Assembly: GCA_965199715.1 (NCBI GenBank)
Contig: OZ241322.1
Span: forward strand, 736,001-800,000
Source: Vicinamibacteria bacterium
Lineage (GTDB): Bacteria; Acidobacteriota; Vicinamibacteria; Marinacidobacterales; Marinacidobacteraceae
DNA length: 64,000 bases
Reading direction: 5' to 3'
The translations under genes were made by a program, and so were the position numbers. Under the pieces are notes generated by a model that saw only the letters and a program-made list of their open reading frames with translations, was not told the origin of the DNA and ran no database searches. Position 1 is the stretch's first letter, and each line of letters opens with the position of its first letter. Positions 7,693 to 32,584 of the stretch are shown here, one piece after another.

Positions 7693-7700
7693 TCAGCCGG

Positions 7701-8711: not shown

Positions 8712-8741
8712 GGATCCGGAACCTCCTCGGAACGCCTTGTT

Positions 8742-8758
8742 TTGAAAACGGATTTCAA
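8742..8758. promoter_or_regulatory. Fur-like operator palindrome TTGAAA-N5-TTTCAA
   Basis: AT-rich inverted repeat about 30 bp upstream of the iron SBP start in a GC-rich genome. Confidence 0.6.
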
Positions 8759-8800
8759 TATCATACTATGGAACGCGGCTTGCGTTCGGGACGACGGACC

Positions 8801-13225: not shown

Positions 13226-13815
13226 TCGCGATCCTCGGAGGGACCGGCCCCTTCGGCCGGGCGCTCGCGAAGCGGTTCGTCGCCGCCGGGATCGGGACGG
13301 CCGTCGGATCCCGCAGCGCCGAGCGCGCCCGCGCCGTCGGCTTCGGAGCCCGGGGCATGACGAACGCGGACGCCGCGCGGGCGGGAGACCCGGTCTTCCT
13401 CGCCGTGCCGTTCTCGGCGCAGGACGCGCTTCTCGCCGAAGTCGGGCCGCTTCTCGAAGGCAAGCTCGTGATCGCCTGCGGCGTGATCTGGCCGCCCGGC
13501 TCCCGCCCGGAGACGTCCGCCGCCGAGGAGGCCGCCCGGCTGCTCCCGGAGTCCCGCGTCGCCGCCGCGTTCCAGACGGTCGCCGCGGCGGAACTGGCCG
13601 AGGGCGGGGCCGAGGCCGACGCGCTCGTCTTCGCCGATCGCGAGGCCGACCGCGTCGAGGCGGCGCGGATCGCCGCCGCCGCCGGCCTCCGCGCCCTCCC
13701 GGTCGGGCCGCTGCGGCTCGTGCGGGCGGCCGAGGCCTCGCTCGGAATCCTGCTGCGGCTGAACCGATCCGGGATCGCCCGGCGCGCCGGCCTCCGGATC
13801 ACCGGACTGAAATGA
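13222..13815 (+). CDS. NADPH-dependent F420 reductase (Fno/NpdG-like)
   Basis: IAILGGTGPFG, GSRSAERA, LAVPF, SAAEE, AAFQTV; adjacent to cofE. Confidence 0.75.
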   Translation: MIAILGGTGPFGRALAKRFVAAGIGTAVGSRSAERARAVGFGARGMTNADAARAGDPVFLAVPFSAQDALLAEVGPLLEGKLVIACGVIWPPGSRPETSAAEEAARLLPESRVAAAFQTVAAAELAEGGAEADALVFADREADRVEAARIAAAAGLRALPVGPLRLVRAAEASLGILLRLNRSGIARRAGLRITGLK

Positions 13816-16702: not shown

Positions 16703-16703
16703 C

Positions 16704-18110
16704 ATGAAGAAACCCCGGATCGCCGACGCGCTTCCGGCGCGACGCGACGTCCTCCGCTACGGCGGCCTCGCGCTCGCCGGGACGGTCGCGGGCCAGGCGG
16801 TCTGGCCGCTGCGCGCCTACGCGAACGGGGCCGCGACCCCGAGGCGGACGGCGCGGTACTGCATCTTCGTCGAGATGGGCGGCGCGATCAGCCCGATGGA
16901 CACCTGGGACTTCAAGCAGACCCGCTGGACCCCGCCGGATCTGGACATGGTCCAACTGAGCGACGAGGTCTCGCTCTCCCGGACGCTGTTTCCCCAGCTC
17001 GTCCATCGCATGGACGAGGTCGCGCTCGTGCGCTCGATGCGCGCTCCGGAGCTGATCCACTTCAACGGGCAGTACCACACGCAGACCGGGCGAGTGCTGA
17101 ACGTGGCCCTCGCCCGCGAGATCCCGGCGTTCGGGAGCGTGATCGCCGCCGAGCTGGACCGGGAGCGGCGCGAGCGCGACACCTTCCCGACCTACGTCAG
17201 CACCTACCTGACGCGGGCGCGCGCCGGCTCGATCGGCGCCGGGTTCCTGCCGACGCGCTTTTCCGGGCTCGACCTCGACCCGACCACGGTGTTCGACGCG
17301 TTCGGCGGGAACGTGGACGGAAGCCTCAAGGTGCTCGAAGAGCGCTTCCGGCTGCTCGGCCAGCTCGCCGAGATCTCGGCGCCCGAGCGCGCGTCGCTGG
17401 GCCGCCGGGCGTCCGACTACCGCGACTACTACCGGTCGGCCTACGCGCTGCTCACCGACCCCCGCTGGCCGCAGTTGTTCCGGGCGACCGGCGACGACCG
17501 GGAGCGCTACGGCGCGGACGAATTCGGGCTCGGTTGCATCCTCGCCCGCAACCTCATCGAGGCCGACGCCGGCACGCGGTTCATCTACATCTACGACGGC
17601 GACAAGTGGGACCACCACGCCGGCATCTTCGACCGCTCGCGCAAGTGGAACCACTACACGACCTGCCCGAGGCTCGACAAGGGATTCGTGGCGCTGCTCG
17701 ACGACCTCGGCGCGATGCCGGGGACCGAGCCCGGAACCACGGCCCTCGACGAGACGCTGATCGTGGTCACGAGCGAGTTCGGGCGCACGCCCGACATGAA
17801 CCCCGTGCTCGGCCGGGACCACTATCGCGAGGCCTACACGACCATGTACGCCGGCGGCGGGGTCCAAGGAGGGCGGGTGCTCGGCAAGACCAACGAGGAC
17901 GGATCCGAGGTCATCGACCCGGGGTGGAGCCATGACGGCCAGCCGTTCATGGACAACACCGTCGCGACGATCTACTCGGCGCTGGGGATCGACTGGCGCA
18001 AGTCGGTCACCAACACCCCCTCGGGGCGGGAGTACCTGTACGTGGACTCCATCGCGCTGGGCGCCTCCGAGATGATGTTCGACGACGAGATCGCCGGAAT
18101 CTTCAAGTAG
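16704..18110 (+). CDS. DUF1501 domain protein (Tat signal)
   Basis: RRDVLR Tat motif; GAISPMDTWDFK, WDHH, SEFGRTP, GRDH. Confidence 0.9.
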   Translation: MKKPRIADALPARRDVLRYGGLALAGTVAGQAVWPLRAYANGAATPRRTARYCIFVEMGGAISPMDTWDFKQTRWTPPDLDMVQLSDEVSLSRTLFPQLVHRMDEVALVRSMRAPELIHFNGQYHTQTGRVLNVALAREIPAFGSVIAAELDRERRERDTFPTYVSTYLTRARAGSIGAGFLPTRFSGLDLDPTTVFDAFGGNVDGSLKVLEERFRLLGQLAEISAPERASLGRRASDYRDYYRSAYALLTDPRWPQLFRATGDDRERYGADEFGLGCILARNLIEADAGTRFIYIYDGDKWDHHAGIFDRSRKWNHYTTCPRLDKGFVALLDDLGAMPGTEPGTTALDETLIVVTSEFGRTPDMNPVLGRDHYREAYTTMYAGGGVQGGRVLGKTNEDGSEVIDPGWSHDGQPFMDNTVATIYSALGIDWRKSVTNTPSGREYLYVDSIALGASEMMFDDEIAGIFK

Positions 18111-18116
18111 CGGTCC

Positions 18117-18920
18117 TTGCTGCTCGCGCTCCTGCTGTTCGGGGCGGGAAGCGCCGCGGAACCGCACTGCACCGACGATCGGACCGAGGACATCTGCTGG
18201 ATCGCGGGCGGCGAGTTCTGGATGGGGCGCACGCACCTGTGGCTCATCGACGAGATCGGCTGGCAGACCCGCGACCGGGTGGACGACCGGCCCGTCCACC
18301 GCGTCCACGTGCCCGGTTTCTGGATGGACCGCGCCGAGGTCACCCAGGAGGCGTACCGCCGGTTCGCGCAGGCCACGGGGCGCGCCGAGCCGTTCCACTG
18401 GCGGCAGGGGTTCCCCGAGGAGGCCGCCCGCCGCCCGGCGTACAACGTGACGTGGGAGGACGCGGCGGCGTACTGCGCGTTCCGCGGCAAGCGCCTTCCC
18501 ACCGAGGCCGAGTGGGAGAAGGCCGCCCGGGGCCAGGTTGACGGGGCGCCGTACCCGTGGGGCCTCGAGTTCGCGCCGGACGACGGGGACGGCCCCCCGG
18601 CGCGAGTGGGTCATCCGCACGGCCCGGCCGACGTCGGCTCGTACCCGGCGAACGGATACGGCCTGTTCGACATGATCGGGAACATCGCCGAGTGGGTGGC
18701 CGACAGATACGATCTCGGCTATTACGCGGTGAGTCCGGTCGAGAGTCCCAAGGGGCCGGCCGAGGCTCCCTACCGGGTGTTCCGCGGCGGAAGCTGGGCG
18801 GACGCCGACGAACGCATCACGTCCGTGTTCTATCGGAACTTCACGAGGCCGGACACGACCATCCACAGCATCGGGTTCCGGTGCGCCATGGACCATCCCG
18901 AAGGGGAGACGACACGATGA
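18117..18920 (+). CDS. Formylglycine-generating enzyme (FGE/SUMF1) family protein
   Basis: KRLPTEAEWEKAAR, NGYGLFDMIGNIAEW, RGGSW, IGFRCA. Confidence 0.9.
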   Translation: MLLALLLFGAGSAAEPHCTDDRTEDICWIAGGEFWMGRTHLWLIDEIGWQTRDRVDDRPVHRVHVPGFWMDRAEVTQEAYRRFAQATGRAEPFHWRQGFPEEAARRPAYNVTWEDAAAYCAFRGKRLPTEAEWEKAARGQVDGAPYPWGLEFAPDDGDGPPARVGHPHGPADVGSYPANGYGLFDMIGNIAEWVADRYDLGYYAVSPVESPKGPAEAPYRVFRGGSWADADERITSVFYRNFTRPDTTIHSIGFRCAMDHPEGETTR

Positions 18921-19882
18921 GCGAGAACCGCATCGGCCGGCGCCGAGCGATCCAGGGCCTCGCGGCGGGAAGCGCCGCGATCGCCGGCGGCGTCCGCGCC
19001 GCGCAGTCCGCATCGGGCGACATGGGAACCCGCTTCCAGGAGATGCTCGCCGGGCCGGATCCCGTCATCTGTCCGGGGGCCTTCGACGCCATCTCGGCGC
19101 GGCTGATCGTCGAGAACGGCTTCGACGCCGTGCTCATCGGCGGCAGCGCCGGCTCGGCCGCGAACCTCGGCGTGCCCGACTACGGGCTCGCGTCGATCAC
19201 CGAGCTCATCGAGGTCTCGGCGCGGATCGCCGACTCGGTGCCGGTTCCGGTCTTCGCCGACGCGGACGACGGCGGCGGCAGTCCGCTCGCGGTGGCGCGG
19301 GCGACGCGCGGCTTCGAGCGCGCCGGCCTCGCCGCGATGATGATCGAGGATCACGTGCAGGCGAAGCACCTCGGCGAGGGCGGCGTCCTCGTGGACGCTC
19401 CCGGCATGCAGGACCGCGTCCGCGCCGCCGCCGACGCGCGATCCGGCGGCATGATGCTGGTCGCCCGCTGCGACGCGGTCTCCATCGGCCTGAGCGAGGC
19501 GGAAGCCATCGACCGGGGCGCGGCCTACGTGGAAGCCGGCGCGGACCTCCTCTTCTTCGCCGGACTCGCGCCCGAACGCCTCGGCCCGGTCTCGCAGGCG
19601 TGCGGACGCCCCGCCATCGCGAGCGTCCACGACACGCCCATGGAGACGCTGCGGGAGAACGGCGTGCCGCTGGTCCTCTACGCCGGGCAACTGCTGCGGC
19701 TCGCGCTCGGCGCGATGCAGCGCGGGCTCGACGACATCAAGAACGGGGCGACGTGGCCCGGCTACGCCGAGCGGGCCCTTCCCGGCGACGCCTACCAGCG
19801 CCTCATCCGCTCGGGCGAGTGGCGAGACCGCGCCCGCCGCTACAACCTCGTGAACGCCTCGGGCCGCCAGACTAGGGGCTGA
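18917..19882 (+). CDS. Isocitrate lyase/PEP mutase (PrpB-like) family protein with N-terminal Tat-like leader
   Basis: PGAFDAISAR, GVPDYGL, ADADDG, IED, VARCDA, YVEAGAD; leader GRRRAIQGLAAG. Confidence 0.8.
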   Translation: MSENRIGRRRAIQGLAAGSAAIAGGVRAAQSASGDMGTRFQEMLAGPDPVICPGAFDAISARLIVENGFDAVLIGGSAGSAANLGVPDYGLASITELIEVSARIADSVPVPVFADADDGGGSPLAVARATRGFERAGLAAMMIEDHVQAKHLGEGGVLVDAPGMQDRVRAAADARSGGMMLVARCDAVSIGLSEAEAIDRGAAYVEAGADLLFFAGLAPERLGPVSQACGRPAIASVHDTPMETLRENGVPLVLYAGQLLRLALGAMQRGLDDIKNGATWPGYAERALPGDAYQRLIRSGEWRDRARRYNLVNASGRQTRG

Positions 19883-20065
19883 GTCCGTGGCGACCGCCAC
19901 CCCGCCGGACCAAACTAGTCGCCCCGTGTTCATCCCCGTTCGTCAAAAGGAGAGTTCACGCCCCCAAACACGGAATTCCTGACACGGCCGACAAGCGGGC
20001 GCCGGGAGCCGGAGACTGCTTGGCTCGCCGCCTGGAACCCCCGCTTCCGGCGCGTCGCGGCCTCG

Positions 20066-20127
20066 GAAAAGCGTGACTTTTTCGACGCCCGAAACTGTGA
20101 GCTTGCCCCGCTTTCGTGGACAGTTGA
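20066..20127. mobile_element. Probable nested IS terminal remnants: IS21-like end repeats cut by an IS3-like terminal inverted repeat (TGAGCTTGCCCC...TGGACAGTTGA)
   Basis: GTGACTTTTTCGACGCCCGAAACTGTGA followed directly by TGAgcttgCCCC...gTGGACAgtt resembles IS end consensus recalled from memory; no transposase present. Confidence 0.3.
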
Positions 20128-20225
20128 CTATTTTGGATCCGCGGCGTGACGCGAGCTTCGTTCCCGCCGCCGGGCCGTGTTCCCGAGAGCCGGCCCCGCT
20201 GACGCGGACCGCTTCGAGAGCGAGG

Positions 20226-23117
20226 TCACACTCGGCGACGCGGGCGGCCCCGAGACCGGAACCGACCGCCCGGATCGGCGAGGTTGCGTCTCCGCGCCTC
20301 GGCCCGAAGCGCCGCGCCCGCACCCCGCCAGGGGTGCGGCGCGCAGGGCCGAGGCCCGTCGCCCGCTCGTCCCGCGGCTGCGCTCCCGACCCGCTCATGC
20401 CAGACGGTCAGGCGGCCATCGGTCTCGGGGTCCCATGACTCGTCCAAGTCTTCCGGCCGCAGGAGCCACACTTCGCCGCCCTTGGACTTGAGGACGCCAG
20501 CCTCGTCAAGCCCGTCCACGCTCGTGTTCTTCGCCTTGGTGAGAGTCTCGGCGATGCCGTAGTCCCCCCGGTCGAACCCGAACTGCTCGAACCACGCGAG
20601 CGCCCAGCGGGTGTCCGCGTCGAAGTCGCCCTCCTGCTCGGCGAGCACCTCGTCGAGCGTGCGGTTGATCGCGGCGAGCGCCTCCCGAACGGACATGGCG
20701 TTCCCCTCGGCGTCGAGCACCTTCCCGTAACGCGTGTACACGGCCATGCCCGGACCGATGGCCGCCTGCGCCAGATCCACCGGGGCGACGTTGCCCGACT
20801 GGAGCAGCCGAAGGGCCTGCGGAAGCTCGGAACGAAGCTCGGTCAGGAACTCCCGCCGGGTGGCGGCCGGGGCGTCGTCAGGGCGGCGCCGGCAGACCAG
20901 CACGATGGAGGAGGCGAGGGCGGCAATGTTCTTCTTGAGATTACCCGTCAGTTCGGTGCGCATCGGCCACGTACCGGTGATGGCGAATCCAGAGTGGATC
21001 GCAGCATCAAGGAAAATGTCCCAAGCCGTACTGGCCACTCCACCCTCTGCATTCCGCTCAGCTTGTTTGAAAGCGTAGTAAATCGTCACGGGGAAGTCTG
21101 GGTGTGTACGTGCTGAGATCTGTCGGAGTGCCTTCTTCATGCCTGCAAGAAAAAAGGCTTCGGCGGCCTCCCGGCTCCCATGCCGGTATGGAGTCGCCAC
21201 CAACTCCCTAGCTTTCGGCACTGCGAGCGTCGCCATTAGCTCTCCAAATCCCGATTTCAGGGAGCGCCGCAGCCAGACATAGAAGAAATCGGAGAGATCG
21301 GCGTATCCGATGTTGTCGTAATACGGCGGGTCGGTCGAGATCACAACCGTGTCAAGGTCCGGAGTTCCTGCAGCGGCGTCAAACTGACCTGCGAAACCGG
21401 GACGACAGGCGAGCACGGCCACATCCACGACTTTGGTCAGATAATCGACTTGACCTCTGAAGTTCCCGCTGGACGTGCTGAACGGATTGGCCTCGCAATA
21501 GGACCACACCATGGGGAGGGCTTGGCGAGCGAACACCTGTTGCACGTTGCCGGCGCCAGAGTCCCAGAACGTCAGCGTGGAGCTACGGTTGGCTTGGCGG
21601 CCAACTGATAGTCCAAGATACAGGGACGCCGCCTCGGCGTAGGCCGTCGCGCCGAGGCCGCCGTCGCGCAGAGGGCGGTCGTCGTCGGGGAGGCCGGCCG
21701 AGGCGGCGTCATCCCGGATTCGCGCGCGGGCCTCGCCGACGAGGTCCGAGAACGTCGTCAGGGCCACGAGCTGGCGATCAGTGAAGAGGTCGCGCCACTG
21801 AAGCATCCCGTATTCCTGAACCCGAAAACCGAGAGCTCTCTGGGGGAGATCGGTGTCCGGCTCCCACGCCGGCGCCGCGTTGCGGGCTGCCCGTTCCTGC
21901 GCCGTGGTCGGAGTCAAGTACACGCGGCCGCGGTCGCCCTCCGCGACGACCGCGAGGAGGCGCGAACCGAGACGGCCCGCCTTGCCTTCCCCCCGCAGGT
22001 AGTCGAACGGCATCGGCGAACCGGAGATGAGGCATTTGAACGGACTCCCGCTTCCCCCTACCTTGGTCCCGCGCTTGATCCCCCCGTCCGTCGGGGGGCC
22101 GACGCGCACGCGGAACCGATAGTCCCGGCCCTCGACCGCCGGCTCCACCCACGCCTCCTTCCCCTTCTTCGTCGACAGCATGAACGTCGACGCCAGCGGA
22201 ACCTCCACGTCACCGAACGCCGGGTTCGGGCTCCTTACCGTCCGCGCCCACAGCCACGCGATCACCGTCAGCTCCCGCCCCTCGTACGCCTTCAGGTCCG
22301 GACGCTCCCGAACCATCTCCGCCGTGACCTCCACCTTCGGGTACAGACGGCCGATCCGCTTCTCCGCCTCGTCCCGCATCCACTTCCCGTAGTACCGGAC
22401 GTCCTCGGCGAGGCCGGTCGCTCCCGGCCACGCCTTCGCAACCACCGTCTGCTTCGCCCGGGAGTCCGGGTTCACCGGCGGCCTCCCCGCGAACTTCGGC
22501 GGGATCTCGATCATCGCCTTGTTGATGAGCACCGCCACCGGGTTCAGGTCGGAGGCGTGCGCCTCGAGGCCGAGCCGCTGCGCCTCCAGCGGCAGCGCCC
22601 CGCCCCCGGCGAACGGATCGTGGAAGGCCGGGAGCCGGTTGCGGTCGAAGAGCTCGTCCGCCCGGGGGTGGTCCGCGTTCTCGGCGCAGGCCCTTCGCCA
22701 GCTCTCCCGGATCTCCGCCCGCGCCGCCTCCAGCACCGTCTCGTTGGCCGTGTTCTCCCACTTGACCAGGTCCTCGACGATGCGGAACAGCCGCCGGCGC
22801 TCCCGCTCGGCGGCGGCCTCGGCCAGCGCCGTCGGCGTCGCCTCCCGCCCCCGCTTCTTCAACTCCCGCCTCGCGGCCGCCCGCGTGGGGCCGTCCGACA
22901 GCAGCGCGTCCGCGTACTCCGACGGGTCGTCCACCATCTGCGCGAAAATCACCGCGCGGGCCACCGCCAGCGGCTTGCGCGACCACCACAGGTGCAGCGT
23001 CGAGGGGTGGCCGTGGCGGATCGACTTCTCGCGGGCGCCGGCGGCGTTGATCTCGTCGAGCGGCAACGCCACCTCGATCAGCTTGCGGCGATGACGGGGG
23101 GAGTCCGAGGCGGCCAT
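20226..23117 (-). CDS. DUF1156-domain adenine DNA methyltransferase, copy A (homology ends at 20400; lacks the last ~84 aa)
   Basis: [26 protein letters not shown] (DUF1156), DPFAGGG SAM motif, TDPPYYDN catalytic motif; after RLTVW the reading frame turns into unrelated sequence. Confidence 0.9.
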   Translation of the reverse strand: MAASDSPRHRRKLIEVALPLDEINAAGAREKSIRHGHPSTLHLWWSRKPLAVARAVIFAQMVDDPSEYADALLSDGPTRAAARRELKKRGREATPTALAEAAAERERRRLFRIVEDLVKWENTANETVLEAARAEIRESWRRACAENADHPRADELFDRNRLPAFHDPFAGGGALPLEAQRLGLEAHASDLNPVAVLINKAMIEIPPKFAGRPPVNPDSRAKQTVVAKAWPGATGLAEDVRYYGKWMRDEAEKRIGRLYPKVEVTAEMVRERPDLKAYEGRELTVIAWLWARTVRSPNPAFGDVEVPLASTFMLSTKKGKEAWVEPAVEGRDYRFRVRVGPPTDGGIKRGTKVGGSGSPFKCLISGSPMPFDYLRGEGKAGRLGSRLLAVVAEGDRGRVYLTPTTAQERAARNAAPAWEPDTDLPQRALGFRVQEYGMLQWRDLFTDRQLVALTTFSDLVGEARARIRDDAASAGLPDDDRPLRDGGLGATAYAEAASLYLGLSVGRQANRSSTLTFWDSGAGNVQQVFARQALPMVWSYCEANPFSTSSGNFRGQVDYLTKVVDVAVLACRPGFAGQFDAAAGTPDLDTVVISTDPPYYDNIGYADLSDFFYVWLRRSLKSGFGELMATLAVPKARELVATPYRHGSREAAEAFFLAGMKKALRQISARTHPDFPVTIYYAFKQAERNAEGGVASTAWDIFLDAAIHSGFAITGTWPMRTELTGNLKKNIAALASSIVLVCRRRPDDAPAATRREFLTELRSELPQALRLLQSGNVAPVDLAQAAIGPGMAVYTRYGKVLDAEGNAMSVREALAAINRTLDEVLAEQEGDFDADTRWALAWFEQFGFDRGDYGIAETLTKAKNTSVDGLDEAGVLKSKGGEVWLLRPEDLDESWDPETDGRLTVWHERVGSAAAGRAGDGPRPCAPHPWRGAGAALRAEARRRNLADPGGRFRSRGRPRRRV
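20400..20918. repeat. Inverted repeat block 3 (519 bp, roughly 85-90% identical to 28583-29101)
   Basis: Manual reverse-complement comparison; same length; mostly synonymous differences; the terminal 15 bp are identical. Confidence 0.85.
21616..21791. repeat. Inverted repeat block 2 (176 bp, about 3 mismatches to 27713-27888)
   Basis: Manual reverse-complement comparison (DLFTDRQLVAL...AASLYL). Confidence 0.9.
22081..22946. repeat. Inverted repeat block 1 (866 bp, near-identical to 26571-27436)
   Basis: Manual reverse-complement comparison; includes an apparently perfect run of about 425 bp (26780-27204). Confidence 0.9.
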
Positions 23118-23127
23118 CGCGGCTGGA

Positions 23128-24204
23128 CTACCGGCGGGCCGCCGCGGTCAGGAACACGCGCGCGCCGTCAACCGCCGCGACGAGGCGATCCCCGGGCGCG
23201 AGGCCCGCCGCCGCCACGACGCTCGCGGGCAAGGTCACCTGGTTTCCGGCGCGAAGCCTCGTGACGCGCATCGCCGCCGCCTTTCGCCGATCAAGCGGTC
23301 GGATTGTACGGCCCGCGGTCCGCGAGGGAGCGGTTCCGGCGAGAAGCGCGGACACCGCGCTTCCCACGCGCTCCGCCGCCGCCTCGACCTCCTTGTCGCT
23401 CACGTGCGCGTAGCGCATGGTCATCCGGGGCTGGGCGTGCCCGAGCAGGCGCGAGACGACCGGCAGCGGCACGTCGTTCATGACCGCGTGGCTCGCGAAC
23501 GTGTGGCGGAGGTCGTGGAGGCGAACGTCCGGGATTCCCGCCGTTCGCCTCACCTTCCGCCACAGCGAGAGTTCGGCGGCGCGGGGACGGGTGGGGTCCG
23601 AGAGCGACGGGAACGCGAACTCGCTTCCGGTCCGCGGCTGCCGCGCGAGGATCGACCGCGCCCGGGCGTTCAGGACGACCGTGCGCGGGCCGGTCTTGGC
23701 GTCGGCGAGGCGGAGGGAGTCCTCCCCGACCTCGGACCAGCGCAACCCGACGATCTCGCCCTTCCGGCAGCCGGTCAGCAGGAGCAACCGGATGATCTCG
23801 GCCTGCTGCCGCCCCGAGCCGCGTCCCCGGTGCGCGTCCAGCGCGGCGAAGAGACGCCGGATCTCGTCCCGCGACAGGAAGCGGGTGAGCCTCGGGCGCG
23901 GGTTGGGCCGCACGCCCCGGGTCGGGTTCTTCCCGACGTGGCCGCAGGCGACGGCGTGGTTGAAGATCTGGCGCAGCACGTCGAGCGTCCGGTTCGCGCC
24001 CGCCGGGGCGGTCGCCCCGTAGCGGTCGAACCACCGCAGGACGTCGCGGCGGCGGACGCGGTCCAGCCGCCGCTTCCCGAACGCCGGCAGCAGCTGGGTC
24101 CGCAGCGCGCTGTCCATCCGGACGCGAGTGGAGGGCTTGCAGCGCTCGTAGCACGCCGCTCTCCATTCCGTCTCCACGAAGCGTCCGAACGCGGGCGCGG
24201 TCAA
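23128..24204 (-). CDS. Tyrosine recombinase/integrase with C-terminal AbrB/MazE-like domain
   Basis: TGCRKGEI, DAKTG, RLHDLRHTFA, LLGH...TMRYAH; tail MRVTRLRAGNQVTLPASVVAAAGLAPGDRL. Confidence 0.9.
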   Translation of the reverse strand: MTAPAFGRFVETEWRAACYERCKPSTRVRMDSALRTQLLPAFGKRRLDRVRRRDVLRWFDRYGATAPAGANRTLDVLRQIFNHAVACGHVGKNPTRGVRPNPRPRLTRFLSRDEIRRLFAALDAHRGRGSGRQQAEIIRLLLLTGCRKGEIVGLRWSEVGEDSLRLADAKTGPRTVVLNARARSILARQPRTGSEFAFPSLSDPTRPRAAELSLWRKVRRTAGIPDVRLHDLRHTFASHAVMNDVPLPVVSRLLGHAQPRMTMRYAHVSDKEVEAAAERVGSAVSALLAGTAPSRTAGRTIRPLDRRKAAAMRVTRLRAGNQVTLPASVVAAAGLAPGDRLVAAVDGARVFLTAAARR

Positions 24205-25082
24205 GACCGCGGGTCGAGCGCGGCTCCGACGGCCTCGGCCGCGTCGCGGATCATCGGGTCGGCGACGTGGGCGTAGCGGAGCGTCGTCGAGGGCTCGAGG
24301 TGCCCCAGCAGCCGCCCGATGGTCAGCAGCGTCTCGCCCCGGCGCAGCGCGAGGCTCGCGAAGCTGTGGCGCAGGTCATGGAGGCGGAGGTCGGGAAGGC
24401 CCGCCTCGTCCCGGACTGCCCGCCAGCAGCGGTAGAGGGTCTCGTCGGCCATCGCGCCGGCGCCGCCCGGAGCGGGGAACGCCCAGTCCGCGGTTCGCGG
24501 CACGGCCTCCAGCAGCGACCGCGCCTCGGAACAAAGCCAGACGGCGCGCGGCCCGACCTTGCCGTCGCGAAGATGCAAGTGCCCTTCCCGGAGCTCCGAC
24601 CAGCGCAGGGTTCGGATCTCGCCCTGCCGGCAGCCGGTCAGCGCCAGCAGGCGAATGACCGCGACCGGAAGCGGCGCGACGTCCCGTGAGCGGTCGAGCG
24701 CCATCCCGAGCCGCCGGAACTCCGCGTCGGTCAGGAACCGGGACCGCCCGCGCTCGCGGAACCGCTTCAGCCCGACGCAGGGGTTGCTGTCCTCCGCGCG
24801 GTGGCCGTAGAGCTCCGCCTGCCGGAGGATCACCGACAGGATGGGAAGCGACCGATTCGCCGCCGCCGGCGTGTCCCGAAGTCCCGCGAACCAGCGCTCG
24901 ACCTCGCCGCGGTCGATGTCGGCGACGGGGCGATCCCGGAACCACGGCAGGATCCGGCAGCGCAGGTACGCCCGGTTCACCTTGGCGGTGCGGGGCTTCC
25001 AGCGGGAGCCGTATCGACGGAAGACCTCCTCGGCGACGGCCTCGAAGAGGGGGCTGCGGGGTCTGGTACGGTTCGCCGGCAT
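24201..25082 (-). CDS. Tyrosine recombinase/integrase
   Basis: TGCRQGEI, DGKVG, RLHDLRHSFA, LLGH...TLRYAH; TTGA overlap with the downstream recombinase; start uncertain (25082 or 25172). Confidence 0.9.
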   Translation of the reverse strand: MPANRTRPRSPLFEAVAEEVFRRYGSRWKPRTAKVNRAYLRCRILPWFRDRPVADIDRGEVERWFAGLRDTPAAANRSLPILSVILRQAELYGHRAEDSNPCVGLKRFRERGRSRFLTDAEFRRLGMALDRSRDVAPLPVAVIRLLALTGCRQGEIRTLRWSELREGHLHLRDGKVGPRAVWLCSEARSLLEAVPRTADWAFPAPGGAGAMADETLYRCWRAVRDEAGLPDLRLHDLRHSFASLALRRGETLLTIGRLLGHLEPSTTLRYAHVADPMIRDAAEAVGAALDPRS

Positions 25083-25251
25083 GAGAGCGGGAGCGATCTT
25101 GCGCCGCACTCCGATGCGGGTTCGGGGGCGCCGCCGTCGGGGCGGACGTCCAAACCGCCGGTGTTGATGCAAGGCGAGGGCGCGGCGGCTCGAAATTCGC
25201 TCACGGGGACACCCCCTGCCGAAGCGGAGTCCAGCCGGGGGACGTCCGCTC

Positions 25252-26394
25252 GTGTCTGAGCTTCGAGCACTTCTCGAACAGATTCGGCGTGGTATTGCGG
25301 ACGACGCCTAACCCAACGAGAGCGCGGTTGGCCACCAAGTCGTAGTTCCGGTGCTGCGCACGCTCGGATGGAACGTGGAGAGCCCGTCCTTCGTGCGCCA
25401 TGAGTTTCTGCTGAGGCTAAAGGACACGACGCGAAGAGTGGATTTGGCGCTTTGCGTATCCGGCGATAACCCACGTTGCATCATAGAGTTGAAAGCAACC
25501 GGGAAAGCGCTGAACGCCGCCCGCGGTCCAAGCGCGGAACATCAAGTGTTCGAGTACGCGTTCTTCGCAGGTGCGCAATTGGCGGTCTTGACGAACGGAG
25601 CCGAATGGCGCCTCTACTCTGCGCAGAGCTTCGGCCGTATTGAGGAGCGGCTCGTATGGGCGGTCAACGTCTCCAATGACTCGCCGGACGTCGTCGCGAG
25701 CGGCTTCGAGCGCTACCTCTCCTTCGCCAATGTCGCGTCTGGAGACGCCGCGGATTTCGCCAGAAGGGATCTGCGGGTGCGGCGTGACCAACAGGAGGCG
25801 AGACAGTCGATTCCGGACGCTTGGGATCAGCTCTGCCACGGCGACGCAAGCGATGTCTTGGTGGATCTCGTGAGGGAGGCGACGTCCGCGCTCGCCCAAG
25901 GCGAGCCCCGACGGGAGGACGTCGTCGCCTTTCTGCACGGGTTGACGCAACGCCCGGCGCGTCGCAAGGTTCGGAAGCCGAAGCCCGAGCCGGGCGCGCC
26001 GCGAGAGCCGCGACCCGAATGCGAGGAGAGGCGTCTCGGAGGCGGTTCAGGTTCGGTCCGTTACTCGCTCTTGGGCGAGGAACGCCGGGCCAAGAACTTC
26101 ACCGATGCGTACGTTGACGCGTTCCGAGCCTTCGCCGGTCGCGATCCGAGTTTCGTGGATCGAGCGGACCCGAGGCTTCGCGGTCGGAAGAACCGCGTCG
26201 TCGCTCGAACGAAGGAGGAGCTGGCGGAGAATTCTCAAATGAGGTCCACGGCCAGGGAGTTGCCCGGAGGTTGGTGGCTGCTGACCAAGATGAGTAGCAA
26301 GCAGAAACAGCGAGTCCTTCGAACGGCGTGCGGGACAGCCGGCATCCCGTTCGACGATCCGGCCGGGTTGAAGATCGGCGACCCGAGCGCTTGA
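25252..26394 (+). pseudogene. PD-(D/E)xK restriction endonuclease (HsdR_N-like) with SeqA-like C-terminal domain; in-frame TAA at 25309-25311 (re-initiation at GTG 25351 possible)
   Basis: SELRALLEQIRRGIADDA*PNESAVGHQVVVPVLRTLGW; RVDLAL...IIELKA; QVFEYAF; LTNGAEWRLY; GGGG SD-like before GTG 25252. Confidence 0.75.
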
Positions 26395-26570
26395 AGGGGC
26401 GCTTCAAGGGCCGCGCCAGAATCATGGGAAGGAAGCTGATCGAGGTCGCCCTCCCGCTCAAGGCGATCAACGAGGCCTCGGCTCGCGAGAAGTCGATCCG
26501 CCACGGCCACCCGTCCACCCTGCATCTCTGGTGGGCGCGGCGGCCGCTCGCCGCCGCGAGGGCGGTGATC

Positions 26571-27436
26571 TTCGCGCAGATGGTGGACGACCCGTCGGAG
26601 TACGCGGACGCGCTGCTGTCGGACGGCCCCACGCGGGCGGCCGCGAGGCGGGAGTTGAAGAAGCGGGGGCGGGAGGCGACGCCGACGGCCCTCGCCGAGG
26701 TCGCGGCGGAGCGGGAGCGCCAGCGGCTCTTCCGCATCGTCGAGGACCTGGTGAAGTGGGAGAACACGGCCAACGAGAAGGTGCTGGAGGCGGCGCGGGC
26801 GGAGATCCGGGAGAGCTGGCGAAGGGCCTGCGCCGAGAACGCGGACCACCCCCGGGCGGACGAGCTCTTCGACCGCAACCGGCTCCCGGCCTTCCACGAT
26901 CCGTTCGCCGGGGGCGGGGCGCTGCCGCTGGAGGCGCAGCGGCTCGGCCTCGAGGCGCACGCCTCCGACCTGAACCCGGTGGCGGTGCTCATCAACAAGG
27001 CGATGATCGAGATCCCGCCGAAGTTCGCGGGGAGGCCGCCGGTGAACCCGGACTCCCGGGCGAAGCAGACGGTGGTTGCGAAGGCGTGGCCGGGAGCGAC
27101 CGGCCTCGCCGAGGACGTCCGGTACTACGGGAAGTGGATGCGGGACGAGGCGGAGAAGCGGATCGGCCGTCTGTACCCGAAGGTGGAGGTCACGGCGGAG
27201 ATGGCGCGGGAGCGTCCGGACCTGAAGGCGTACGAGGGGCGGGAGCTGACGGTGATCGCGTGGCTGTGGGCGCGGACGGTAAGGAGCCCGAACCCGGCGT
27301 TCGGAGACGTGGAGGTTCCGCTGGCGTCGACGTTCATGCTGTCGACGAAGAAGGGGAAGGAGGCGTGGGTGGAGCCGGCGGTCGAGGGCCGGGGCTACCG
27401 GTTCCGCGTGCGCGTCGGCCCCCCGACGGACGGGGG
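26571..27436. repeat. Inverted repeat block 1 partner
   Basis: Reverse complement of 22081-22946. Confidence 0.9.
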
Positions 27437-27712
27437 CACGAAGACAGGGACAAAGGTCGCCCGAGGCAGCTTCCGGTGTCTGATGTCGGGAGTTCCCATC
27501 CGGTACGAGTACGTCCGGCACGAGGGCAAGGTCGGGCGGATGGGATCGCGGATGCTCGCGATCGTGGCCGCCGGAGATCGCGAGCGCGTGTACTTCGCCC
27601 GACGCACATACGCGGCCGGCGGAAAGCAGTGCGACCCCGTGGAAGCCTGACTGTGAGATGGGGACATGAAGCATCGGAACTTTGGGTCCCGTCTATGGAC
27701 TGGACGTTCGGG

Positions 27713-27888
27713 GACCTCTTCACTGATCGCCAGCTCGTGGCCCTGACGACGTTCTCGGACCTCGTCGGCGAGGCCCGCGAGCGAATCCGGGATGACGCCG
27801 CCTCGGCCGGCCTCCCCGACGACGACCGCCCGCTGCGCGACGGCGGCCTCGGCGCGACCGCCTACGCCGAGGCGGCGTCCCTGTATCT
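27713..27888. repeat. Inverted repeat block 2 partner
   Basis: Reverse complement of 21616-21791. Confidence 0.9.
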
Positions 27889-28582
27889 CGCGTTCGTGCT
27901 CAGCAAACAGGCTGACCACGGCAATGCGCTGTGTACTTGGGGGCCTTTGGACCAGCGTCATTATCACCTGTTCGGGCGTCAGGCGATCCCCATGGTGTGG
28001 GACTTCGCCGAAACCAATTTCTTCTCCGATTCTGCGGGGAGCGTGACGAGCGGTATCCGTTGGTCGGTCGAGTGTCTCAAGCGTCTTCCCGCACATCTCC
28101 GTGGAGGCGGCGTCGGGCGCGAAGCCCAAACGCAGGGACTGAGCCAGGACAAGGTCGTATCGACCGATCCGCCGTATTACGACAACATCGGCTACGCCGA
28201 TCTCTCGGACTTCTTCTACGTCTGGCTGCGTCGCTCCCTAAAGGGAGTGTTTCCGGATCTATTCTCAACTCTAGCGGTGCCCAAAGCAGCTGAGCTGGTA
28301 GCAACCCCGTATCGCCACGGAGGTCGAGACGTGGCAGAAACATTCTTTGTTGACGGGATGTTTCGGGCGCTTTGTCGGCTAGCTGAACGTACGCACTTGG
28401 GCTTCCCAGTAACCGTCTATTATGCCTTCAAGCAATCAGAAACTAAGAGAGACGAAGGTACTACAAGCACCGGTTGGGAGACGTTCCTGGGTGCCGTCAT
28501 TCGATCTGGCTTCACGGTTACGGGAACATGGCCGATGCGCACCGAGCGGAGCGCTCGGACGACGGCCATTGGCGCCAACGCG

Positions 28583-29101
28583 CTCGCCTCGTCCATCGTG
28601 CTGGTCTGCCGGCGGCGGCCCGACGACGCTCCGGCCGCGACCCGCCGCGAGTTCCTGACCGAGCTTCGCGCCGAGCTTCCCGGCGCCCTGCGCCTGCTCC
28701 AGTCGGGCAACGTCGCCCCGGTGGACCTGGCGCAGGCCGCCATCGGTCCGGGCATGGCCGTGTACACGCGCCACGGGAAGGTGCTCGACGCGGAAGGAAA
28801 GACCATGACGGTTCGGGAGGCCCTGGCCGCGATCAACCGCACGCTCGACGAGGTGCTCGCCGAGCAGGAGGGGGACTTCGACGCGGACACTCGCTGGGCG
28901 CTCGCGTGGTTCGAGCAGTTCGGGTTCGACAAGGGCGACTTCGGCGAGGCGAACACGCTGGCCAACGCGAAGAACACCAGCGTGGACGGCTTGGACGAGG
29001 CCGGAGTCCTCAAGTCGAAGGGCGGCGAGGTGTGGCTGCTGAGGCCGGAGGATCTGGACGAGTCGTGGGATCCGGAGACGGACCGACGCCTGACCGTCTG
29101 G
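28583..29101. repeat. Inverted repeat block 3 partner
   Basis: Reverse-complement homolog of 20400-20918. Confidence 0.85.
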
Positions 29102-29923
29102 GAGGCTGTCCACCACCTCGTCCGTCGCCTCGACAAGGACGGCGAGGCGGGCGCCGCGGAGGTCGTCGCCAAGCTCGGCGGTCGTGCGGAAGCGGCCCGC
29201 GAGCTCTGTTACAGCCTCTACACGCTGTGCGAGCGGAAGCAGCGGGCCGCCGAGGCGCGCGCGTACAACCGGCTGGTCCAGAGCTGGCCCGAGATCGCGC
29301 GGCTGTCGGAGTCCGCGAGGCACCGACAGGCGTCCGTTTTCGGAAACGACTGAGCGGGGGCCGCTCAGCGCGCGGGCCGGACCCCGCCCTCCGGCGGAGC
29401 CCGTACCCCGCACGGAACACATCCGGAATGTTCACTCGTCCGGAAGCGGCGGCAGGGCTTTCCTGACTCGCTTTCGCACATCGTCGAATGCGACGAATCT
29501 CGAGGTCATCGGCTCTCATCCAACGAGATGCGCTCGTTCAAGCGGCGAACAGCCGCGTCCCGATGCGGACCGACGTCCGCTCGCCCGAGTCGCGATCGGT
29601 GCGCATGGCGGCTGTGGACGGACCCGTTCCCGAGCGGCCACAACCTGTCCACATGAACTCGGAATTTCTTCTCCTGCGGCCCGCCATCGGGTTCCGTGGG
29701 AATGCCCAGGAACACCAACGCATGCCTGAGAGCCCGCACTCCGCGCTCAGCCCGCAGAGATTGTCGGCGTTGGGCCAACGCTCGCAGTCGCGAAGCAGTT
29801 CCGCGTCCTCGAAAGTCCACTCGCAGCCCCATCGATCATCCCCCCCCCACGTCGAATCACAGCCATCCCACGGACCGCGGACGACGCGCCGGAAGCATGC
29901 CCGCCGCCGACTTTCTTCGGCCG

Positions 29924-32584
29924 CTACGTCGGGAATCCGGCGAGACCGGCGGCGGACGGCGCCGCCAGTTCGCTGCGGGCCTGATCGTTCAGCCACTCCG
30001 CGCGGCTGCCCGTGACCTCGCGGGTGACGCGCAGGACGTTCTCGATCTGCTCGGCGACCGCGGGCACGTGGGAGATCACGGCCACCATCCGGCCCGCCGC
30101 GACGCTCTGGAGCGCCTCCACCGCGACGTCCACGTTGCCGGCGTCCAGCGACCCGAATCCCTCGTCGAGGAAGAACGACTCGAGCCGGCCGCCGGTGCGC
30201 TCCATCATCTCGACCATCCCGAGCGACAGCGAGAGCGACGCGAGGAATTGCTCGCCGCCCGACAGGCTCGCCGGCGCGCGGGGCGTTCCCGAGTCGGCGT
30301 CGAGGATGCGCCAGGGATCGTCCGGTTCTTCCGGCTCCACGAAGGCGTAGCGGCCCCCGCTGACTTCCTTCAGCTTCTCGGAGGCGTGGATGAGGAGGTT
30401 CCGCGAACGCCGGAGGGTGAGCCACTTGAGGAACTGCCCGCCCTTGAGCGCGTCGGCGAGCCCGGCGAGCGCGTCCCGCTTGCGGGTCACGTCGCGGAGG
30501 AGGTCGAGCAGGCGGCGGACGGGGCCCGCGATCCTTGCGAACCGCTCCTCTTCCTTCCGGGCGGTTCGCTCCTCGTAGCCGGCTTCCCTTGCGCGGGCCT
30601 GCGCCGACGCGACGACTTCGTCTGGACCGCCGCCGCCAAGTTCCCGGAAGCGGGCGCGGGCCGCCGCCTGCTTCGCCCCGGCCCGCTCGGCCAAGCCGGC
30701 GGCGGCGGCGGCGACGGCCGCGCGACCCGACCGGAGCGCCTCGAGTTCCGGCGGTCCGACGGGCTCCAGACCGAGGCGATCGGCGGCCAGCAAGAGGATG
30801 TCCCGGTACTTGCCGCGCTGCGCGTGGATGCGCTTGAGCGGGCCTTCCAGGTCCCGCTGGCGGCGGGCGGCGAGTTCCGCGCGGGCTTCGTCGTTCCGGC
30901 GGCGCTCGCGCACAAGGCGGTCCCTGTCCCGCTGCCGGTCGGCCAGCGTCTCCTTGCGGGCCCGCGCCGCCCGCCAGGCCTCGGCGATGGGTTCGGGCTC
31001 GGGGAGGGGGCGAAACGCCGGGGGAACGCCGTTCAGCGCTCGAGTCAGTTCCGCCTGCGCCCGCGCCGCTCGGTCCCGGCCTCGCTCGGCGGCTCCGTGC
31101 GCGTCGCTGGCCTCACGCTCCAGACCCTCGGCGATGCGCTCGTGCTCGCCGACGCGCTGGCGCGCCTCGTCGAGCGGAACCGGCGCCTCCACCGGACCGA
31201 TCCCCGCAATCTGTTCCCGGTGGGATGCGACGTCCCGGTCGCACTTGGCCGCCTCCCGAACGGCCGCGCGCGCCGCTCGCTCGGCCTCGTCCAGACCGAT
31301 CGCCGGCGGAGCCTCCCAGCCCTCGGGAAGCTCGCTGGCGCAGACCGGGCAGAAATCGCCGGGATGGAGGTCCGCCGCCGCGTGCGCCGCGGACTGGGAC
31401 CGTCGCTTCGCCGCGAGCCGCGCTTCCGCCGTCGCCGCCTCCCGCCGCGCTCGCTCCGCCTCTTCGACGAGCCCCGGTTCTTGGCGCCGCAACGCTGCGA
31501 GTCGCTCGGCGGCTTCCGCCCGGCGCAGCTCATTCTCAAGCGCCGGAAGCGCGCTGACGTGCGCCTGAAGCCGCGCCTCGGCGTCGCTGGCCGCCTGGTC
31601 AAGACGGCTGGTCTCGTCGAGGCGCGCGCGAGCGACGAGGTCCTCGAGTCCTTCGAGGCGGGCGAGCGCGGCCTCGACGTCCGCCTCCCCCGGTCCGTCG
31701 TCCTCGGGAAGCGCGCGAAGCTCGTCGTCCAGGGCCTCGCGCCGGCGTTCGAGTTCTCCGGCGCGTTCGTCAAACGTGCGAGCGCGCTCCTCGAGCGGCG
31801 CGGACTCCGCCTCAAGCGCGTCAAGGTCCACCGCCTCCAGATCGCGGCGGACTGCCGCCGCCAAACCCGCGTCGACGTCCGCCGACTCGAGCGCCGCCTT
31901 CGCGCCGAGCGCCTCCTTCTCGGTCAGGGCGGCCGCCTGGACGCGCTCCGCCGCCGCGCCGAGCGCCTCCCGAAGCGCGACGAGGTGCGCCTCGGGGTTC
32001 TCCGGGTAGGAACTCGCCCGCTCCCCGAGCCGGATGGCCCCCTCCTTGAGCACGTCGAGCGCCTTCCCCGCGCGCCGCCCGGCCTCTTCCAGCTCGTCGG
32101 TCCGCCAAACCTGCCGGAGGATCGCGCTCCGGTCGGTCGGCTTGTCCTCGACCAGGAGGCGGGCGAAGCGGCCCTGCGGGAGGATCACCGTGCGCAGGAA
32201 CGCATCGCAGTCGAGACCGAGCAGCCGCTGGACGCGATCGTTGACCTGGCGAACCTGCTCCACCTGTTCGACCGGCTCGGTGAGGCGGCGGATCTGGGCG
32301 CCGCTCAGACCCTTCCGCTCGAGGCGGACGATTTCCCAGGTCGCCTCGCCCACCTGGAACTCGAAGACCACGCGCATCTTCTCGGACTGGTGGTTCCGAA
32401 GCTCCGCGTTGCGCCCCGCGAACGTCGTCCGCCCGTACAGCGCGTAGGTCATCGCCTCGAGGATCGACGACTTGCCGGCGCCGGTGTCGCCGACGATCGC
32501 GATCCGGTCCCGATCCTCGAAGTCGATCGCCACCGGGGCGCGGAAGGACCGCAGGCCCTCGATCGTCAGCTTCAACGGTCGCAC
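29924..32584 (-). CDS. sbcC: SbcC/Rad50 SMC-like ATPase
   Basis: MRPLKLTIEGLRSF, GDTGAGKSS, LPQGRF, CPVC zinc hook, coiled coil, LSGGE, FLDEGFGSLD. Confidence 0.92.
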   Translation of the reverse strand: MRPLKLTIEGLRSFRAPVAIDFEDRDRIAIVGDTGAGKSSILEAMTYALYGRTTFAGRNAELRNHQSEKMRVVFEFQVGEATWEIVRLERKGLSGAQIRRLTEPVEQVEQVRQVNDRVQRLLGLDCDAFLRTVILPQGRFARLLVEDKPTDRSAILRQVWRTDELEEAGRRAGKALDVLKEGAIRLGERASSYPENPEAHLVALREALGAAAERVQAAALTEKEALGAKAALESADVDAGLAAAVRRDLEAVDLDALEAESAPLEERARTFDERAGELERRREALDDELRALPEDDGPGEADVEAALARLEGLEDLVARARLDETSRLDQAASDAEARLQAHVSALPALENELRRAEAAERLAALRRQEPGLVEEAERARREAATAEARLAAKRRSQSAAHAAADLHPGDFCPVCASELPEGWEAPPAIGLDEAERAARAAVREAAKCDRDVASHREQIAGIGPVEAPVPLDEARQRVGEHERIAEGLEREASDAHGAAERGRDRAARAQAELTRALNGVPPAFRPLPEPEPIAEAWRAARARKETLADRQRDRDRLVRERRRNDEARAELAARRQRDLEGPLKRIHAQRGKYRDILLLAADRLGLEPVGPPELEALRSGRAAVAAAAAGLAERAGAKQAAARARFRELGGGGPDEVVASAQARAREAGYEERTARKEEERFARIAGPVRRLLDLLRDVTRKRDALAGLADALKGGQFLKWLTLRRSRNLLIHASEKLKEVSGGRYAFVEPEEPDDPWRILDADSGTPRAPASLSGGEQFLASLSLSLGMVEMMERTGGRLESFFLDEGFGSLDAGNVDVAVEALQSVAAGRMVAVISHVPAVAEQIENVLRVTREVTGSRAEWLNDQARSELAAPSAAGLAGFPT

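Follow-up and report, generated by a model that had tools for sequence, protein, structure and literature searches.

A candidate recombinase-associated invertible head-swap locus for the HmaB methyltransferase of the Hma defence system in a Vicinamibacteria bacterium

Introduction

Can the methyltransferase gene of a defence system be rebuilt, or turned on and off, by inversion of its own front end? This question is raised by a locus at positions 20226–29353 of the window, the 64,000-nucleotide (nt) stretch of a Vicinamibacteria bacterium that was analysed here (NCBI GenBank assembly GCA_965199715.1, contig OZ241322.1, positions 736,001 to 800,000 of the forward strand). The locus holds two divergent copies of a HmaB/DUF1156 N6-adenine methyltransferase gene, which have three inverted-repeat blocks in common. 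A preliminary interpretation of the DNA letters (hereafter the sequence-only reading) had proposed that recombinases encoded between the two copies invert their heads against a single complete 3' end and thereby produce several specificities. The window has a G+C content of 71.7% and belongs to contig 1 of a two-contig genome of 2.66 Mb; sponge metagenomes are among the sequencing runs that contain the stretch.

HmaB is the methylase of Hma, a candidate defence system that further consists of the helicase HmaA and the ATPase HmaC (PADLOC, PMC8565338). Hma was reported in 26 phyla in the same source, and a preprint has renamed these systems DUF499-centred systems related to bacteriophage exclusion (BREX) (bioRxiv 10.1101/2025.10.09.681413). 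In this study, the anatomy of the locus was examined, inversions were simulated, and related loci and population data were compared. On balance, we favour the reading of the pair as an invertible head-swap locus for HmaB with associated recombinases, which is non-productive as assembled.

Results

Anatomy of the two HmaB copies

The left-hand copy, copy A (T site), occupies 20226–23117 on the minus strand. Its homologous frame is intact for residues 1–906 and lacks the C-terminal ~80 residues of the family. The right-hand copy, copy B (F site), lies on the plus strand in two parts. The N-part (26424–27650) starts with an ATG at 26424 and runs for 408 codons to a stop inside the variable segment V1, and the C-part (27665–29353) holds the only complete tail of the locus (29102–29353). 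Pfam DUF1156 (PF06634) matched copy A (6.5e-26) and the N-part of copy B (2e-27). The PADLOC HmaB profile (PDLC00660) matched copy A with 1350 bits at positions 7–885 of 967 and the C-part of copy B with 819 bits at positions 420–960; neither copy alone covers the profile end to end. These spans agree with the earlier claim that copy A stops matching exactly at the RLTVW motif (20400) and that only the right-hand position has the C-terminus. Beyond 20400, the frame of copy A continues for 57 non-homologous codons into a 305-nt repeat (20097–20401) that abuts the point where the likeness to HmaB ends. In tblastn searches, copy A formed one segment corresponding to reference residues 3–900, while the two parts of copy B corresponded to residues 1–393 (26424–27599) and 417–981. 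Motif I (DPFAGGG) and motif IV (DPPY) are located at amino acid (aa) positions 167 and 596 of copy A, respectively.

The two parts of copy B are in different frames, and about 23 reference residues within V1 (394–416) are lost. A listed open reading frame (ORF) of 940 aa at 26531–29353 is an out-of-frame extension over its first ~380 codons. Thus, the sequence-only reading was right in seeing two methyltransferase copies of the DUF1156 type, but it had missed that copy B is not one ORF and that its frame is broken in V1. Since copy A lacks the C-terminus and copy B is frameshifted, a complete gene is absent as assembled. The V1 of another HmaB copy, found near the end of contig 2 (the C2-end copy), carries more indels than that of copy B, and one 2-nt deletion is common to both. 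Because of this common deletion, the V1 damage of copy B is ascribed to inherited sequence and not to random assembly error. No indels are listed inside the V1 of copy B in the sequencing runs X5 or X1, but no piece of a run covers this segment, so that the runs give no independent confirmation of the frameshift. A natural split-gene form of copy B was considered and rejected: relatives are split at profile positions ~455–462, and the break in copy B falls at ~383–420 with loss of residues.

NCBIfam NF042963, an equivalog for anti-phage-associated DUF1156 proteins with a cut-off of 1000 bits, scored copy A at only 112 bits and the C-part of copy B at 46 bits. Judged by these scores, the HmaB copies of the window belong to a DUF1156 subfamily other than that of NF042963. 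No Pfam match to HsdS (Methylase_S) was obtained in either copy at E<=0.01.

Inverted-repeat blocks and variable segments

A repeat search found three inverted pairs: I1 at 22060–23084 and 26433–27457 (1025 nt, 95% identity), I4 at 21616–21791 and 27713–27888 (176 nt, 98%), and I2 at 20400–20922 and 28579–29101 (523 nt, 87%). Weaker inverted pairs of 70–72% were found in between. When copies A and B were aligned with MAFFT, nearly all 30-nt windows of the I1 core (22081–22946) were identical at 26–30 of 30 positions, far beyond chance. The two methods agree on three blocks where the sequence-only reading had placed them.

On the minus strand, copy A is composed of the I1 arm (22060–23084, aa 12–353), V1 (21792–22059, aa 353–442, in frame), the I4 arm (21616–21791, aa 443–501), V2 (20923–21615) and the I2 arm (20400–20922, aa 732–906). 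Its V2 is divided into the hypervariable V2a (21339–21615, aa 501–593), a block around the DPPY motif (21058–21338) and V2b (20923–21057). On the plus strand, copy B follows the same order: the I1 arm (26433–27457), V1 (27458–27712), whose frame is broken between 27599 and 27665, the I4 arm (27713–27888), V2 (27889–28578), the first ~280 nt of which are 100% identical to the C2-end copy, and the I2 arm (28579–29101). The V1 and V2 segments are unrelated between the two copies, V2a (21339–21615) essentially so; the allele-specific variable regions that had been claimed between the blocks were thus found.

The recombinase cassette

Between the two copies lie two tyrosine recombinase genes on the minus strand, rec1 (23128–24204; Pfam Phage_integrase, PF00589, 2.1e-22) and rec2 (24201–25172; Phage_integrase, 1.4e-15), which overlap by 4 nt. 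rec1 is located 10 nt upstream of copy A in the same direction. Residues R147, K170, H230, R233, H256 and Y265 of rec1 are invariant in all six orthologues, and rec2 has the motifs TGCRQGE, HDLRH, LLGH and RYAHV, which match the catalytic set. Neither protein reached the cut-off of the NCBIfam models of XerC, XerD or integron integrase. A gene on the plus strand (25351–26394), directly upstream of copy B, encodes a PD-(D/E)xK-type nuclease-like protein with an HSDR_N domain (HSDR_N 2e-07, HSDR_N_2 3.1e-05); it had no PADLOC or NCBIfam match. The Pfam matches and catalytic motifs are as expected from the earlier description of two intact recombinases and a nuclease between the copies.

The C-terminus of rec1 (23128–23270) contains a weak AbrB/MazE-like stretch (Pfam 1.3e-3, aa 322–347), which is also present in the orthologue at a second HmaB locus of this genome. 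A PIN-domain gene lies between rec1 and the full HmaB copy in the relative G003 (L009:8225–8725). Together, the stretch and the PIN gene hint at a toxin–antitoxin remnant inside the cassette.

Simulated inversions

Crossovers were simulated at exact 25-mers shared by the two copies. The frame of the F site, which ends with the stop at 29353, covers reference residues 417–981 both as assembled and after a crossover in I1. After a crossover in I4 or I2, it covers residues 3–981. In the relative G008, the frame with the full tail was similarly extended from 80–983 as assembled to 3–983 after either crossover. G002 presents the opposite case, in which the frame shrank from 4–965 to 115–965, and G003 was full length in 4/4 states. 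All of the 10 simulated recombinants are open through the junction to the tail. Three of the four genomes have one good and one defective head, so that inversion would act as an ON/OFF switch; where both heads are good, only V1 and V2 would change.

These simulations qualify two of the earlier claims. Inversion in any of the three blocks had been expected to change the variable regions; this holds for I4 and I2 in the simulated products, and I1 leaves V1 and V2 on their own tails. Several specificities had also been expected. With V1 of copy B frameshifted, the window locus would yield at most two full-length forms, V1 of copy A with V2 of copy B and V1 of copy A with V2 of copy A. For the same reason, the locus in this assembly appears to serve on/off switching no less than a change of specificity.

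HmaB loci elsewhere in the genome and in relatives

HmaB is present in this genome in five copies, spread over three loci that all have a recombinase pair. Locus 2 is on contig 2, with one copy at 6648–9632 on the minus strand and another at 12780–15995 on the plus strand; the cassette between them is ~81% similar to that of the window. The C2-end locus (contig 2, 302768–305220, minus strand) has a truncated and broken HmaB copy next to a DUF499 gene. The cassette after this copy is 100% identical to positions 22739–26338 of the window (3.6 kb) up to the contig end. The copies are mosaic: V2a of copy B is identical (100%) to that of the C2-end copy, and I2 of copy A is nearer to the locus-2 copies than to copy B.

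A perfect 7-kb foldback stands at the start of contig 2, where 1–6998 is the reverse complement of 15645–22642, and runs through the HmaB pair of locus 2. Both ends of the contig (1–22642 and 304133–308411) lie inside HmaB loci. These ends may reflect coexisting isomers, or only confusion of the assembler by repeats.

Relatives were searched in a set of 41 genomes, consisting of this genome (G000) and 40 relatives, and HmaB was present in 25 of them. Seven loci from six relatives were compared in detail. G002, G003 and G008 each have a 3'-truncated and a full HmaB copy in divergent orientation with rec2-rec1 in between, and G014 has a convergent pair, one truncated and one full, with the recombinases alongside. 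These are inverted DUF1156 pairs with recombinases of the kind that the sequence-only reading had suggested looking for in related genomes; the layout also recurs at the two further loci of this genome. The single-copy HmaB loci compared, those of G010, G015 and G006, lack a recombinase (3/3). DUF499 genes flank the HmaB pairs of G002, G003 and G008, and Hma operon partners are present at these paired loci.

The truncated copies of G002, G003 and G014 and the C2-end copy end at reference residues ~792–800. In the truncated copy of G008, the amino-acid match extends to ~848, and the DNA likeness to its partner stops at ~800. The truncated partner in G002 lacks both ends. Orthologues of rec1 (E<=1e-60) were found in 7 of the 41 genomes at nine places, eight of which adjoin HmaB. 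G006 and G011 have 18 and 16 HmaB matches, respectively, and no rec1 orthologue; there is no close inverted HmaB pair among the matches listed for G011. The HmaB expansion of G011 and G006 consists of tandem full-length copies and several adjacent pairs of N-half and C-half ORFs split at profile positions ~455–462.

Signs of exchange between copies

Repeat identity was measured in 60-nt windows in the five complete divergent pairs. Within a locus, the regions at aa ~95–345, 445–500 and 744–800 are mostly 90–100% identical. Some repeat windows fall to 60–88%, mostly in G003, and in the convergent G014 pair I4 is only 75–88% identical. Between genomes, the mean identity is 64–84% in nearly all windows of the repeat blocks. 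With the exception of two windows, V1 and V2a show 26–70% identity within a locus. I4 has identical sharp boundaries (DLFT ... LYL) in every pair, and the block boundaries coincide at all paired loci. Synonymous differences in I4 are numerous when genomes are compared and nearly absent within a pair. Across 56 family members, the conservation of the I4 protein sequence is not unusual; therefore, protein constraint does not explain the identity of I4 within pairs.

In the window and in G008, the rec operon is directed into the truncated copy; in G003 and G002, the full copy takes this place. On sequence comparison, these cassette orientations differ as inversion isomers would, and may represent two states that inversion would interconvert.

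Population data were available as Logan contigs for the runs X5, X1 and X8 and as raw Illumina reads at ~2–5x for X10. In X5, the depths were 70 for V1 and 75 for V2 of copy A against 236–242 for the flanks. In X1, they were 66 and 12.5, respectively, against flanks of 62–74, so that V1 and V2 of copy A are uncoupled there; per-contig depths of this kind represent neither copy numbers nor shares of cells and serve only as hints. A contig of X8 (depth 2.6) carries I1, V1 of copy A and I4 joined to a V2a that is absent from the assembly. Its segments come from opposite strands, the sole joint of this kind in the runs, and the joint is read as a chimeric allele, which is no proof of inversion. 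Further V2a alleles stand directly behind I4 in X1 and X10. These population variants fit a re-assortment of segments at I4. Counted over these two runs and X8, the V2a alleles that follow I4 and are absent from the assembled genome number at least three (compare 27889–28147); none of the loose-end strings by which they are represented was found in the genome.

Structural position of the variable segments

An AlphaFold model of C2b, the intact copy of locus 2, had a pLDDT (predicted local distance difference test) score of 91.5. VIA-align matched it to the class I methyltransferase fold (Z 15.6, root-mean-square deviation 3.0, 175 aligned residues), and the matches span model residues 9–739. 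With this span, the methyltransferase core of the model is split by an insert of ~380 residues that comprises V1, I4 and V2a. A sequence search of the PDB gave no matches at E<=1, and Foldseek with the full C2b model gave none at E<=0.001; VIA-align with the full model returned only the generic class I methyltransferase core. When the insert alone (C2b residues 205–585, pLDDT 93.9) was aligned, the best Z score was 7.3, which is within the stated noise of VIA-align.

Motifs I and IV enclose V1 and V2a. Where an enzyme has the motif order I, insert, IV, its target-recognition domain sits in between. By this analogy, the ON forms of the locus probably differ in the sequence that they methylate. 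As the insert lacks a convincing solved relative, the assignment of V1 and V2a to a putative target-recognition domain is drawn from their position only.

Neighbouring genes and the 305-nt repeat

The HmaB pair is bracketed by a phosphoenolpyruvate (PEP)-mutase-like gene, which ends at 19882, and by a minus-strand gene for an SbcC/SMC-like ATPase (29924–32830). The latter matched PADLOC mad3 (5e-26) and LmuB (2e-13) and an NCBIfam sbcC subfamily (3e-50). Upstream of it on the same strand, at 33765–35729, a gene encodes a 654-aa protein with matches to PADLOC mad8 (1e-14) and, weakly, HerA. The two genes converge on copy B and may constitute a second defence module. On the other side of the locus, 14762–18920 is occupied by a row of PSCyt2/PSD1 (DUF1549/DUF1553), DUF1501 and FGE-sulfatase genes. 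A scan of 19800–29800 for promoters and terminators returned 0 and 0 sites, respectively.

A second copy of the 305-nt repeat, 96% identical, is located at C1:568412–568725 on contig 1. Both copies sit in convergent intergenic gaps, and partial copies consisting of the first ~50 nt occur at four further places. The stretch 20231–20314 differs among runs, with a duplication or insert in X1, X5 and X10.

Discussion

How such a locus might work can be described as follows. Two ends would be fixed, the T site on the left, which is cut before the C-terminal domain, and the F site on the right, which has the only complete tail. The part that flips would carry both promoters, both 5' heads and the rec2-rec1 operon, and it would flip by recombination between the matching blocks I1, I4 and I2 inside both genes, presumably catalysed by rec1 and rec2. 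A crossover distal to a variable segment would move this segment together with its head onto the other end. The assembled state would be OFF, with the good head, that of copy A downstream of the rec operon, on the end without a tail and the frameshifted head on the full tail. Inversion at I4 would place V1 of copy A and V2 of copy B on the full tail, and inversion at I2 would place both V1 and V2 of copy A there; either product would be ON. A crossover in I1 would change nothing relevant. The earlier picture of invertible heads joined to one complete 3' end is in line with the comparative data and with the frames, and what it says of inversion itself is inferred: no read or contig examined carries an inversion joint from the same population.

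Several observations weigh against a recombinase-driven switch at this locus. Neither an HmaA helicase gene nor a gene for the HmaC DUF499 ATPase lies beside the HmaB locus of the window, and the only DUF499 match of the genome (C2:300390–301910) is beside the C2-end copy. The flanks of the locus are not neighbours in the congeners G001 and G003. Both assembled copies are defective, and decay would look alike. It could accordingly be argued that the locus is a dead remnant, orphaned, decaying and without function, which only adds repeats that trouble assembly; copy B is broken in V1, copy A is truncated at the 305-nt repeat, and the cassette matches that of the C2-end locus, where hmaC is present, at 100% over 3.6 kb, so that the window locus may have arisen recently as a secondary copy. 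We consider this quite unlikely, because the ~900-codon homologous frame of copy A is uninterrupted, both recombinases are intact, and a single crossover restores a full-length frame. Moreover, G008 combines a good head on the truncated end and a bad head on the full tail in the same way next to a DUF499 gene, and the 98–100% identity of the I1 core and I4 points to recent exchange. An inverted duplication that the assembler made from a strain mixture or a foldback join is very improbable. The perfect foldback that opens contig 2, the end of that contig in a cassette 100% identical to 22739–26338, and the V-segment depths well under the flank depths in X5 and X1 might be taken to indicate such an artefact. 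Contigs from independent runs nevertheless reproduce V1 and V2 of copy A, the whole cassette, and the tail of copy B with the right flank, with 0–8 differences. The layout is also found in genomes of relatives that consist of one or two contigs, and the copies differ in V1 and V2 and are hence no duplicated path.

Exchange by homologous recombination has to be weighed with more care. Here, an old inverted duplication would be homogenised by RecA-type gene conversion, which would sometimes flip the middle part and import V segments, and the recombinases would be an island integrase module present by chance. No invariant run of at least 14 nt that might be a core site was found across 13 paired copies, and the repeats, at 176–1025 nt, are long enough for homologous recombination. 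Segments are common between loci, as in V2a of copy B and the C2-end copy or in I2 of copy A, which is nearer to locus 2. No inversion joint was found in X5, X1 or X10, a weak test given short contigs that are broken at repeats and reads at ~2–5x. In the window, I2 is only 87% identical. The relatives of rec1 point in the same direction. A rec2-rec1 pair in G007 (L176, C1:1447000–1466999; 67% and 61% identical to those of the window) has no HmaB or inverted repeat near it. In a wider scan of 80 genome loci, from which near relatives may be missing, and of 80 metagenome loci, the best rec1 relative among the genome loci had 61% identity, and the best ones, at 46–61%, were labelled as Alphaproteobacteria metagenome-assembled genomes (MAGs). 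Two recombinase genes are present at 14 of these 80 genome loci, inverted repeats of at least 80 nt at four, and an HmaB-like match (25% identity) at one. HmaB was found at one of the 80 metagenome loci (L096, a 1.8-kb contig with rec2, rec1 and an HmaB head). At L019 (OZ220705.1:2060840–2081706, an Alphaproteobacteria MAG), rec2-rec1 (51% and 56%) borders a gene for an NTPase of the KAP family and one for a Type I HsdM near housekeeping genes; the arrangement resembles a defence island whose integration module consists of two recombinases. Distant rec1 relatives thus sit at island-like borders, unlinked to HmaB or inverted repeats. On the other hand, rec1 orthologues adjoin HmaB at eight of nine places, recombinases are present at 4/4 of the inverted pairs compared and at 0/3 of the single-copy loci, and G006 and G011 are rich in HmaB (18 and 16 matches) without having a rec1 orthologue. 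The truncation point and the block boundaries are constant across genera. The truncated copies also hold frames of ~800 codons that are compatible with the full tail, and the keeping of such frames suggests that these copies are used. Taking both sides together, gene conversion with a bystander integrase module seems fairly unlikely. We also rejected the idea that the pair arose when a mobile element integrated into hmaB, since site-specific integration gives direct, not inverted, repeats.

The head-swap reading may be extended tentatively into a wider picture, which we regard as possible but doubtful in its full extent. The locus would be a phase switch whose flip sets Hma methylation, together with defence or self-targeting, ON or OFF, swaps the recognition segments and redirects the rec operon. 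One head would be kept good and the other would often be dead. The three loci would exchange segments, and the HmaB repeats would in this way drive large genome rearrangements in these sponge-associated bacteria.

Among known invertible systems, the fim switch of E. coli uses the tyrosine recombinases FimB and FimE to invert a 314-bp promoter element between 9-bp repeats. The HmaB locus is like fim in having two paralogous tyrosine recombinases by a putative ON/OFF invertible element, with recombinase transcription that would depend on orientation. Unlike fim, in which a short promoter element is inverted, the HmaB locus would invert several kb including the recombinases and two heads between long intragenic repeats. 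In the R64 shufflon, one recombinase (Rci) recognises the short conserved sfx repeats of 19 bp that flank several segments; the HmaB locus has two recombinases, and its repeats are coding blocks of considerable length. The term shufflon, which the sequence-only reading had used, is not supported in its strict R64 sense, as no short conserved core site was found.

The closest likeness is to the programmed inversions of pglX in type 1 BREX, described in Lacticaseibacillus rhamnosus and Brevibacterium casei (Milman et al., NAR 2023, PMC9881135). According to the passages of that paper on these loci, inversions of pglX and of the DrmMI-like gene of the defence island system associated with restriction-modification (DISARM) and Cj0031-like genes were demonstrated by long reads. 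As at pglX, where inversions take place between repeats inside the gene and its partial inverted copy, the HmaB locus encodes a large N6-adenine methyltransferase that is a single chain and belongs to a defence system, together with a partial inverted copy and a tyrosine recombinase gene. Two of the features by which programmed inversions are recognised, inverted repeats shared by coding sequences on opposite strands and a recombinase gene, are found there. Nested repeats of pglX give rise to several variants, including some intermediates without the C-terminus that were taken as non-functional (PMC9881135). The N- and C-termini of pglX are fixed and the middle is exchanged, whereas at the HmaB locus the tail would be fixed and the head and promoter swapped. 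In what that paper calls 'asymmetry', the partner lacks the 5' end; in reverse polarity, the HmaB partner, copy A, still has its 5' end and start codon and is missing the 3' end. In contrast to pglX as described there, the segment that would flip at the HmaB locus comprises the two heads with their upstream regions as well as two recombinase genes. The class 1 DISARM DrmMI-like and Cj0031-like Type II genes are also defence-island methyltransferases with inverted partial copies, and they belong to other families (PMC9881135, Table 3); the rows of Table 3 on these genes name no DUF1156, DUF499 or Hma. The locus is also like the hsdS invertons, for example those of S. pneumoniae with PsrA, where a recombinase changes the methylation specificity by shuffling target-recognition segments between the gene that is expressed and partial copies that are silent (PMC4948785, PMC7096588). 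There, the target is a separate specificity subunit with a fixed promoter and 5' end; at the HmaB locus, the catalytic enzyme itself would be rebuilt.

In the literature covered, to which subscription journals and supplementary tables do not belong, no report of inversion in DUF1156, DUF499 or Hma was found, and the passages of both preprints on Hma or BREX-related systems make no mention of inversion (10.1101/2025.10.09.681413; 10.1101/2024.01.29.577857); those of the second do not mention a recombinase either. In the canonical Hma system, a single hmaB shares its strand with its partners, whereas the window has two copies on opposite strands without hmaA or hmaC beside them. A survey of genes embedded in Hma kept, according to the passage on its filter, only single-copy, one-strand and pseudogene-free systems (bioRxiv 10.1101/2024.01.29.577857). 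Because such a filter demands a single copy, one strand and no pseudogenes, surveys of this kind would miss paired HmaB loci. The novelty claimed by the sequence-only reading can therefore be kept for DUF1156 and Hma, but not for programmed inversion of defence methyltransferases at large, given the inversions in print for PglX, DrmMI-like and Cj0031-like enzymes (PMC9881135). We think with moderate confidence that the window holds a recombinase-linked invertible locus in which HmaB heads are swapped. DUF1156/HmaB would then be a new target family for programmed inversion with reversed polarity, in which the tail is fixed and the head and promoter are swapped.

Assemblies of genomes with such loci tend to break at HmaB, as both ends of contig 2 do here. 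To our knowledge, it is not settled how Hma distinguishes self from non-self. If the head-swap reading is true, the switch supplies a natural allelic series, with the same core and swapped V1 and V2a, by which the determinants of the target sequence could be mapped. Hma systems could then also be phase-variable, which would be relevant to phage–host dynamics in dense symbiont communities such as those of sponges.

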